A stretch of 64,000 bases of DNA from positions 192,001-256,000 of the IMG/VR virus record IMGVR_UViG_3300002307_000018, one strand, 5' to 3'. This document shows, piece by piece, positions 26,342 to 26,446 of this stretch. Under the pieces are notes generated by a model, which was given only the letters and a program-made list of their open reading frames with translations, was not told where the DNA came from and made no database searches. The DNA is from a virus. Taxonomy: Duplodnaviria; Caudoviricetes. The stretch's first letter is position 1. Every line of letters starts with the position of its first letter. The translations under genes and the position numbers were made by a program.

Positions 26342-26446
26342 GAAACTTTTACTAAATTTCTGGCAGGGGTTTAACGAGATTATCTACCTGCCCAATCTCG
26401 ACATTACGGCGATTTTTCAGTCACGTGCCTTACTAGTCGCTATCTT

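Follow-up and report, generated by a model that had tools for sequence, protein, structure and literature searches.

A conserved RNA module with a covariation-supported pseudoknot at its 3' end, kept beside tRNA-His in the tRNA operons of uncultured giant phages

The spacers of giant-phage tRNA arrays are usually treated as filler, and the question raised by this locus is whether the one between tRNA-His and tRNA-Tyr, which proves to hold a conserved structured RNA, encodes a tRNA mimic or an RNA of some other kind. A sequence-only reading had described two interleaved stems running into CCA, preceded by a weak hairpin, and had proposed that they form a tRNA mimic that is not a cloverleaf. The stretch of DNA analysed here (64,000 nucleotides, the window) comes from a 264,637-bp IMG/VR virus record, about 74% complete, whose phage genes include NrdAB, NAMPT and an Rnl1-type RNA ligase. 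ARAGORN finds 31 tRNA genes in the window, all on the minus strand. The element lies, as had been claimed, downstream of tRNA-His and upstream of tRNA-Tyr, within the 214-nt spacer that separates them and inside a 2.6-kb RNA operon rich in small structured RNAs. At the head of the operon there is a TTGACA-17-TATAAT promoter (~27570), and neither a promoter nor a terminator was found inside the element. The features of the locus, from 5' to 3' on the minus strand, are:

26556 to 26631, minus strand: tRNA-His (GUG) with encoded G-1 and CCA (ARAGORN; Rfam 64 bits)
26452 to 26552, minus strand: stem-closed 101-nt cassette UUCUUGAA/UUCAAGAA (closing stem in the MFE fold)
26401 to 26451, minus strand: 5' half of the element, (A/U)ACAUAAGAUAGCGACnAGUAAGGCACGUGACUGAAAAAUCGCCGUAnnGU, near-invariant, with many stop codons
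26394 to 26400, minus strand: stem 1, 5' strand CGAGAUU (sequence and alignment)
26393, minus strand: loop 1, G (sequence and alignment)
26392 to 26387, minus strand: stem 2, 5' strand GGCAGG (sequence and alignment)
26382 to 26386, minus strand: loop 2 UAGAU, identical in six of seven sequences; AGAU in the homologue L136
26375 to 26381, minus strand: stem 1, 3' strand AAUCUCG (sequence and alignment)
26368 to 26374, minus strand: loop 3 UUAAACC, its AAA invariant in the alignment
26367 to 26362, minus strand: stem 2, 3' strand CCUGCC, followed by A at 26361 (sequence and alignment)
26363 to 26361, minus strand: CCA, both C being outer pairs of stem 2 as drawn
26350 to 26360, minus strand: trailer GAAAUUUAGUA, of which AGAAAUUU is invariant in all seven sequences
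26257 to 26341, minus strand: tRNA-Tyr (GUA; ARAGORN), 3' of the element in the window and in the homologue L119

The minus strand from 26400 to 26361 reads as described, with a stem 1 of 7 bp and a stem 2 of 6 bp (5-6 bp in the original description) that interleave and run into CCA. The hairpin placed before them stood only in part: CUGAAAA is present at 26420-26414, but its stem is merely GGC/GCC and the 5' half in which it lies has no significant fold (z +0.18 against shuffles). Taken from the single window sequence, the pseudoknot is not better than chance. The stability of the fold relative to shuffled sequence is z -0.9 for the 86-nt stretch and z -0.7 for the 214-nt spacer, the MFE fold picks the nested stem 2 only, and 15 interleaved arrangements of a perfect 7-bp and a perfect 5-bp stem occur in 529 kb (the genome, both strands counted). 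The stacking energies, roughly estimated at -11.8 and -14.2 kcal/mol, compare with -10.3 for the nested MFE fold and would keep the knot plausible in energy even when a pseudoknot penalty is charged. In H-type geometry loop 1 spans the deep groove of stem 2 and loop 3 the shallow, or minor, groove of stem 1; the loop lengths here would fit a classical knot of this type, with a loop 3 that could probably bridge the minor groove. The unimpressive single-sequence statistics favour the view that the spacer has no function, that it was conserved through recent block exchange among co-occurring phages and that its stems are chance complementarity, a view that comparison with the homologues makes improbable.

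No described RNA family fits the element. Run at E up to 10, cmscan reported none of the Rfam families for it, tRNA and viral tRNA-like structures (TLSs) included, and at the locus it returned only the flanking tRNA-His and tRNA-Tyr; ARAGORN made no call between 26342 and 26555, and literature searches turned up no paper that describes the element. Membership of the Pistol ribozyme or preQ1 riboswitch families was rejected for want of an Rfam match, and a small ORF within the element was ruled out by stops in all frames.

The element is present in seven sequences of uncultured giant phages, namely the window and six homologous contigs, with one copy per record and no paralogous copies elsewhere in the genome. 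One homologue lies on L119, a JGI contig of 352,926 bp that encodes a 68%-identical homologue of the radical SAM protein found 2.7 kb upstream of the element; L119 has a syntenic operon in which the element is flanked by tRNA-His and tRNA-Tyr. Five further IMG/VR contigs with the element (L132 to L136; 30-170 kb, or an estimated 11-49% of a giant genome each) were reached with a 20-mer taken from its invariant 5' half. No homologue was obtained in IMG/VR with exact 26-mer and 18-mer pseudoknot probes (one chance match, L120), with a tRNA-Tyr variable-arm probe, in metagenome scans by protein and by the 20-mer, or in a 20-mer search of prokaryote genomes, and blastn against cultured phages gave tRNA matches only. 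Among the records reached through the 38-aa, 63-aa and radical SAM proteins of the locus, L119 alone carried the element. Relatives of the neighbouring TctC-like protein are 98%, 89% and 74-77% identical, some with a different gene order. On the contigs of the two closest (P0001 and P0002, at 98% and 89%) a gene of ~198 aa abuts the TctC-like gene and occupies the place taken in the window by tRNA-Glu/Asp and the RNA operon (24969-24987); a 198-aa ORF of the window (32242-32838) was considered as its counterpart and rejected, as the two have no similarity. The phages that carry the module in their tRNA/small-RNA operons are a group of uncultured giant phages from freshwater.

The seven aligned sequences (alignment A1) fall into two forms, one in the window, L119 and L136 and the other in L132-L135, with identical copies in L132, L133 and L134. 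Pairing is found in 93% of the cells in the proposed register, and sliding the partners lowers the figure to 51% or less. Over the homologues stem 1 has 6-7 bp, loop 1 has 1-2 nt, stem 2 has 6-7 bp, loop 2 has 4-5 nt and the A-rich loop 3 has 6-7 nt. The window and the L132-L135 form differ at 7 positions within the 40-nt pseudoknot, and four of these seven differences make up two compensated pairs, one double change in each stem. Column 60/77 of stem 1 is A-U in the window, G.U in L119 and L136 and G-C in L132-L135, while column 67/91 of stem 2 changes from A-U to C-G. The remaining differences remove the last pair of stem 1, add a U-A pair to stem 2 and alter loop 3. When 7 random substitutions were simulated in a 40-mer, at least two compensated pairs arose in 0.6% of trials (p ~0.006), and the test is a fair one because the structure had been fixed beforehand from one sequence. 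The pseudoknot first proposed from the window is thus supported by covariation, through two events between two clades, and its two stems are kept in the homologues. Read on the opposite strand the G.U pairs would be lost, so they fix the strand of the element as that of the tRNAs. The change in stem 1 is also compatible with a weak alternative, the nested 4-bp inner hairpin preferred by RNAfold, but this hairpin loses a pair in four of the seven sequences and shows no double change. That two compensated pairs account for four of the seven differences between the clades in the 40-mer, in a structure proposed in advance, argues against the stems being chance complementarity.

Part of the high identity goes back to recent ancestry. 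The window from 26730 to 28040 and L119:11981-13671, which hold the RNA operon and the 79-aa and 63-aa ORFs, share 93-98% DNA identity, and the small ORFs beside and inside the operon are 90-100% identical at third codon positions; in contrast, the flanking radical SAM and TctC-like genes of the two phages reach 68-72% identity in protein and 51-56% at third positions. This difference implies that the block was recently exchanged between otherwise diverged giant phages, so that the high identity between the window and L119 reflects in part recent shared ancestry and is no proof of selection. The exchanged block, together with the identical copies in L132, L133 and L134, speaks for a spacer without function. 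Against it, the element is 87-100% identical among loci in which the adjacent tRNA genes have been replaced, and it holds its place in seven differently arranged arrays.

The arrangement of these arrays deserves a closer description. The element is co-oriented with the tRNAs, and tRNA-His is its upstream neighbour in all homologous loci. It follows tRNA-His directly in L119, L134, L135 and L136, and in L132 and L133 it comes after a tRNA-Tyr that itself directly follows tRNA-His; in all six homologous loci the CCA of a tRNA precedes its start by 3-4 nt. The adjacent tRNA-His genes belong to four sequence types and share 57-91% identity, compared with 87-100% for the element, and L134 and L136 have identical tRNA-His genes with different forms of the element. 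This mismatch in identity indicates that the array is a mosaic of exchangeable modules, and the neighbourhood of tRNA-His and the element has survived the shuffling, the element having been kept beside tRNA-His while the surrounding tRNA genes were swapped. The modules stand in the order His-element-Tyr in the window (26257-26631) and L119 (13677-13948) and in the order His-Tyr-element in L132 (689-965) and L133 (3017-3293), and the permuted modules reuse the short junctions AGUA and GUAAAAGUUU; the reused junctions point to recombination at microhomologies between RNA modules. The 101-nt cassette between tRNA-His and the element is found in the window only and is absent in the six homologues. 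The corresponding sequence of L119 is CCA-AAG-A-ACAUAAG. The indel falls exactly between two AAG repeats, which suggests that cassettes of this kind are gained and lost whole. The motif AGGCAC occurs twice in the cassette (26536-26531 and 26466-26461) and a third time in the element (26430-26425).

The fixed place of the element could mean that it acts in cis, as a structured 3' trailer of pre-tRNA-His (or pre-His-Tyr) that guides or times its cleavage or shields it from 3' exonucleases. The gap of 3-4 nt between a tRNA CCA and the element does not vary, although the tRNA-His alleles are of four unrelated kinds and the order in L132 and L133 is permuted, and the junction motifs AGUA and GAAAUUU are conserved. 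We nevertheless consider a cis-acting role unlikely: in the window the 101-nt cassette parts tRNA-His from an element that is unchanged, an invariant single-stranded segment of 50 nt exceeds the needs of a processing signal, and the other 30 tRNAs of the window manage without such an element.

The conserved block spans ~26451-26349 on the minus strand, about 100 nt, and is larger than the stretch originally noticed. It consists, in this order, of the near-invariant 5' half of ~50 nt (ACAUAAGAUAGCGACnAGUAAGGCACGUGACUGAAAAAUCGCCGUA), the pseudoknot, the CCA and the invariant GAAAUUU trailer. Pairwise identity is 92-100% in the 5' half, 78-100% in the knot and 87-100% over the whole. The invariant sequence runs 8 nt beyond the CCA, and the trailer contains AA/AUU, which matches the RNase E-type pattern RN/WUU. 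CCA is encoded in all 31 tRNAs of the window, and an RNWUU begins no more than 6 nt downstream of it in 15 of the 31, compared with 15% expected. The trailer of tRNA-Arg at 11629, GAAUUUAG, is close to the CCA-GAA/AUUU of the element, so that CCA plus GAAAUUU resembles the tRNA 3' ends of this phage.

Taken together, the element is best read as a small RNA that would be processed from the operon, with its 3' end capped by the pseudoknot, and we put the probability of this reading at roughly 0.5. Host enzymes that cut the tRNAs apart would also release the module from the long transcript of the operon, by RNase E-type cleavage within the AGU and GAAAUUU junctions and subsequent trimming of the 3' end. 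The compact knot, whose G-C-rich stem 2 reaches the CCA, would halt 3' exonucleases and thereby fix and protect the 3' end, while the work of the RNA, binding a protein or pairing with another RNA, would fall to the conserved, single-stranded 5' half. The excision of the RNA, its ends and its stability are all inferred. The reading is favoured by a 5' half that is 92-100% identical and yet folds no better than shuffled sequence, by an element more conserved than the four types of tRNA-His that adjoin it, and by a trailer like those of the phage tRNAs in an operon whose promoter lies at its head and not in the element. The covariation amounts to two evolutionary events and the identity between the window and L119 is partly of recent ancestry, both of which temper it. 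There is a precedent in T4, where two small RNAs come from the tRNA region (PMC3014915).

That the element is a non-cloverleaf tRNA mimic, as the sequence-only reading had it, is possible but doubtful. Stem 2 stacked on stem 1 would imitate the minihelix of acceptor and T arms with a 3' CCA, and the processed RNA would be read by RNase P, the CCA-adding enzyme, an aminoacyl-tRNA synthetase and EF-Tu. Part of the proposal stands: the pseudoknot is backed by covariation, CCA is kept in six of the seven sequences and is followed by a tRNA-type trailer, the element lies in a tRNA operon and always accompanies tRNA-His, and the H-type topology would place the CCA end at the tip of a stack of ~13 bp. 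All viral TLS classes combine a pseudoknotted acceptor mimic with a 3' CCA (PMC8127992), and RNase P cleaves an H-type pseudoknot to which a free RCCA tail has been attached (PMC12710915). Some details of the CCA, however, speak against it. Both of its C residues can pair, with G26392 and G26391; RNase P, by contrast, requires an unpaired RCC, and the model pseudoknot had to be given a free GCCAC tail before it was cleaved (PMC12710915). The RCCA of a pseudoknot substrate is single-stranded, lies 3' of the helix and pairs with the P15 loop of RNase P RNA; a GCCA is present here, but its G, C and C are all inside stem 2 as drawn. L136 reads UCA and thereby retains a G.U pair, and AGAAAUUU is invariant after the stem, so conservation does not stop at the CCA. 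Nor is the remainder of a tRNA to be seen. The element has no T-loop (no loop of the UUCGAAU type), no D-loop or D arm and no analogue of the anticodon arm, because its 5' half is without a significant fold, and stem 1 closes no loop other than the one that contains stem 2. It is not a canonical cloverleaf (RF00005; ARAGORN), with no Rfam tRNA or TLS match at E up to 10 and no ARAGORN call. No gene for a CCA-adding enzyme or HisRS was found in the 74%-complete record.

Comparison with the plant-virus TLSs shows where the resemblance ends. Like TLS-Val (TYMV), TLS-His (TMV) and TLS-Tyr (BMV), the element has an H-type knot with covarying stems whose 3' strand runs into CCA and would come to the tip of a coaxial stack. 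The TLSs lie at the 3' end of an RNA genome, have an unpaired NCCA and are aminoacylated, and they keep a T-arm with its T-loop (UUCGAAU in TLS-His), the T-arm and pseudoknot together making 11-12 bp, as well as an analogue of the anticodon arm (PMC8127992). The element differs from them in a CC that can pair, in lacking T-loop and anticodon arm, in its position internal to an operon of a DNA phage and in having one homologue with UCA. Pseudoknotted acceptor arms favour histidine identity, and the TLS of TYMV can accept histidine by virtue of a residue -1 mimic within its pseudoknot (PMC8127992). Because such arms offer a mimic of residue -1, a histidine identity is possible for the element as well, and this, with the constant partnership with tRNA-His, would make charging with histidine plausible. 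A full version, in which a DNA phage encodes a TLS-type mimic whose excised knot shows its CCA to host tRNA enzymes, might be charged with histidine and could be a decoy or sensor for a host synthetase, nuclease or defence system, is by analogy conceivable and in our view highly doubtful. The idea that CAC and UGGG of the element pair with the anticodon and the CCCA end of tRNA-His, in the style of a T-box, is unsupported speculation; the matches to tRNA-His are only 3-5 nt long and UGGG is lost in L136.

The knot might instead be the aptamer of a ligand-binding riboswitch, for example one that senses a 7-deazaguanine precursor. It resembles preQ1-I and other H-type aptamers in being compact, with a non-zero loop 2 (4-5 nt) and an adenine-rich loop 3, both loops being conserved; moreover, the nearest tRNAs (His, Tyr and Asp) belong to the queuosine-modified group, related loci hold queuosine-pathway Pfam matches, and relatives carry QueC, QueE and FolE-like genes. 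But the stems are much longer than those of preQ1-I (RF00522), neither preQ1 nor any other riboswitch matched at E up to 10, and there is no expression platform, since a tRNA or other RNA follows the element and not a regulated ORF. We regard a ligand-binding role as very improbable.

The small processed RNA that we prefer has its closest known counterparts among the non-tRNA RNAs of tRNA operons. T4 encodes RNAC and RNAD (species 1 and 2), small RNAs among the phage tRNA genes whose role is still unknown (PMC3014915, PMC9697503). The element likewise lies amid phage tRNA genes, shares their strand and presumably their precursor transcript, but no sequence or Rfam relation to RNAC and RNAD was found, and it is an H-type knot with a fixed place after tRNA-His and is known from sequence. 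In E. coli, 3'ETS-leuZ is a spacer of a tRNA precursor that is freed by RNase E, acts in trans through a single-stranded segment and ends in a terminator hairpin. As proposed here, the element would also be the spacer of a polycistronic tRNA transcript with a single-stranded segment; unlike 3'ETS-leuZ it ends in a pseudoknot, and no target or Hfq-type motif was identified. The element adds a concrete member to the barely explored non-tRNA RNAs of phage tRNA operons. If it is true that tRNA enzymes read the CCA-ended knot, tRNA-like structures would extend from plant RNA viruses to DNA phages.

The other structured RNAs of these arrays are distinct from the element. The stalk cassettes, which carry cargo, have a closing helix of 15-19 bp (AUAUUGAAGUACA...UGUAUUUCAAUAU) that was not found in the element, which has no matching 3' arm; the two share only AAGUACAU, at the 5' junction, in five of the seven loci. 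A scan with a 14-mer of the stalk matched mostly chance loci, with six true stalk arrays among the matches (L004, L069, L088, L102, L103 and L038), and by BLAST and covariance model these were without the element, so that stalk-bearing records can lack it. In the spacer upstream of tRNA-Tyr, three of them hold different tRNA-like RNAs that ARAGORN does not call (L004:5896-5990 and L069:4500-4592, minus strand; L038:4129-4237). One such RNA has an acceptor stem UCCUCGU/ACGAGGG, a T-arm and GCCA, and another has D and T arms with a long insert in place of the anticodon arm. A stalk-bearing contig fragment, L089, has an asterisk-flagged ARAGORN tmRNA call at 6252-6700, near tRNA-Met and tRNA-Cys.

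Several minor observations concern the tRNA array of the window. A tRNA-Glu(UUC)/tRNA-Asp(GUC) pair occurs twice, at 24987-25144 and 26735-26895, 1.7 kb apart, and the two copies bracket the stalk cassettes, tRNA-Tyr, the element and tRNA-His; the duplication is also present in L119. At 33200-33270 on the minus strand there is an Rfam tRNA match of 34.6 bits, barely over the gathering score and without an ARAGORN call, which is possibly a degenerate or unusual tRNA. Within the RNA operon, between a stalk cassette and tRNA-Asp, lies an ORF of 38 codons (26899-27015, minus strand; MYTVEYQTEEDTVKEIHR...) with a hydrophobic C-terminal half. Its counterpart at L119:13386-13502 differs by two amino-acid changes and zero synonymous changes, and L116 has a stretch of 80% DNA identity.
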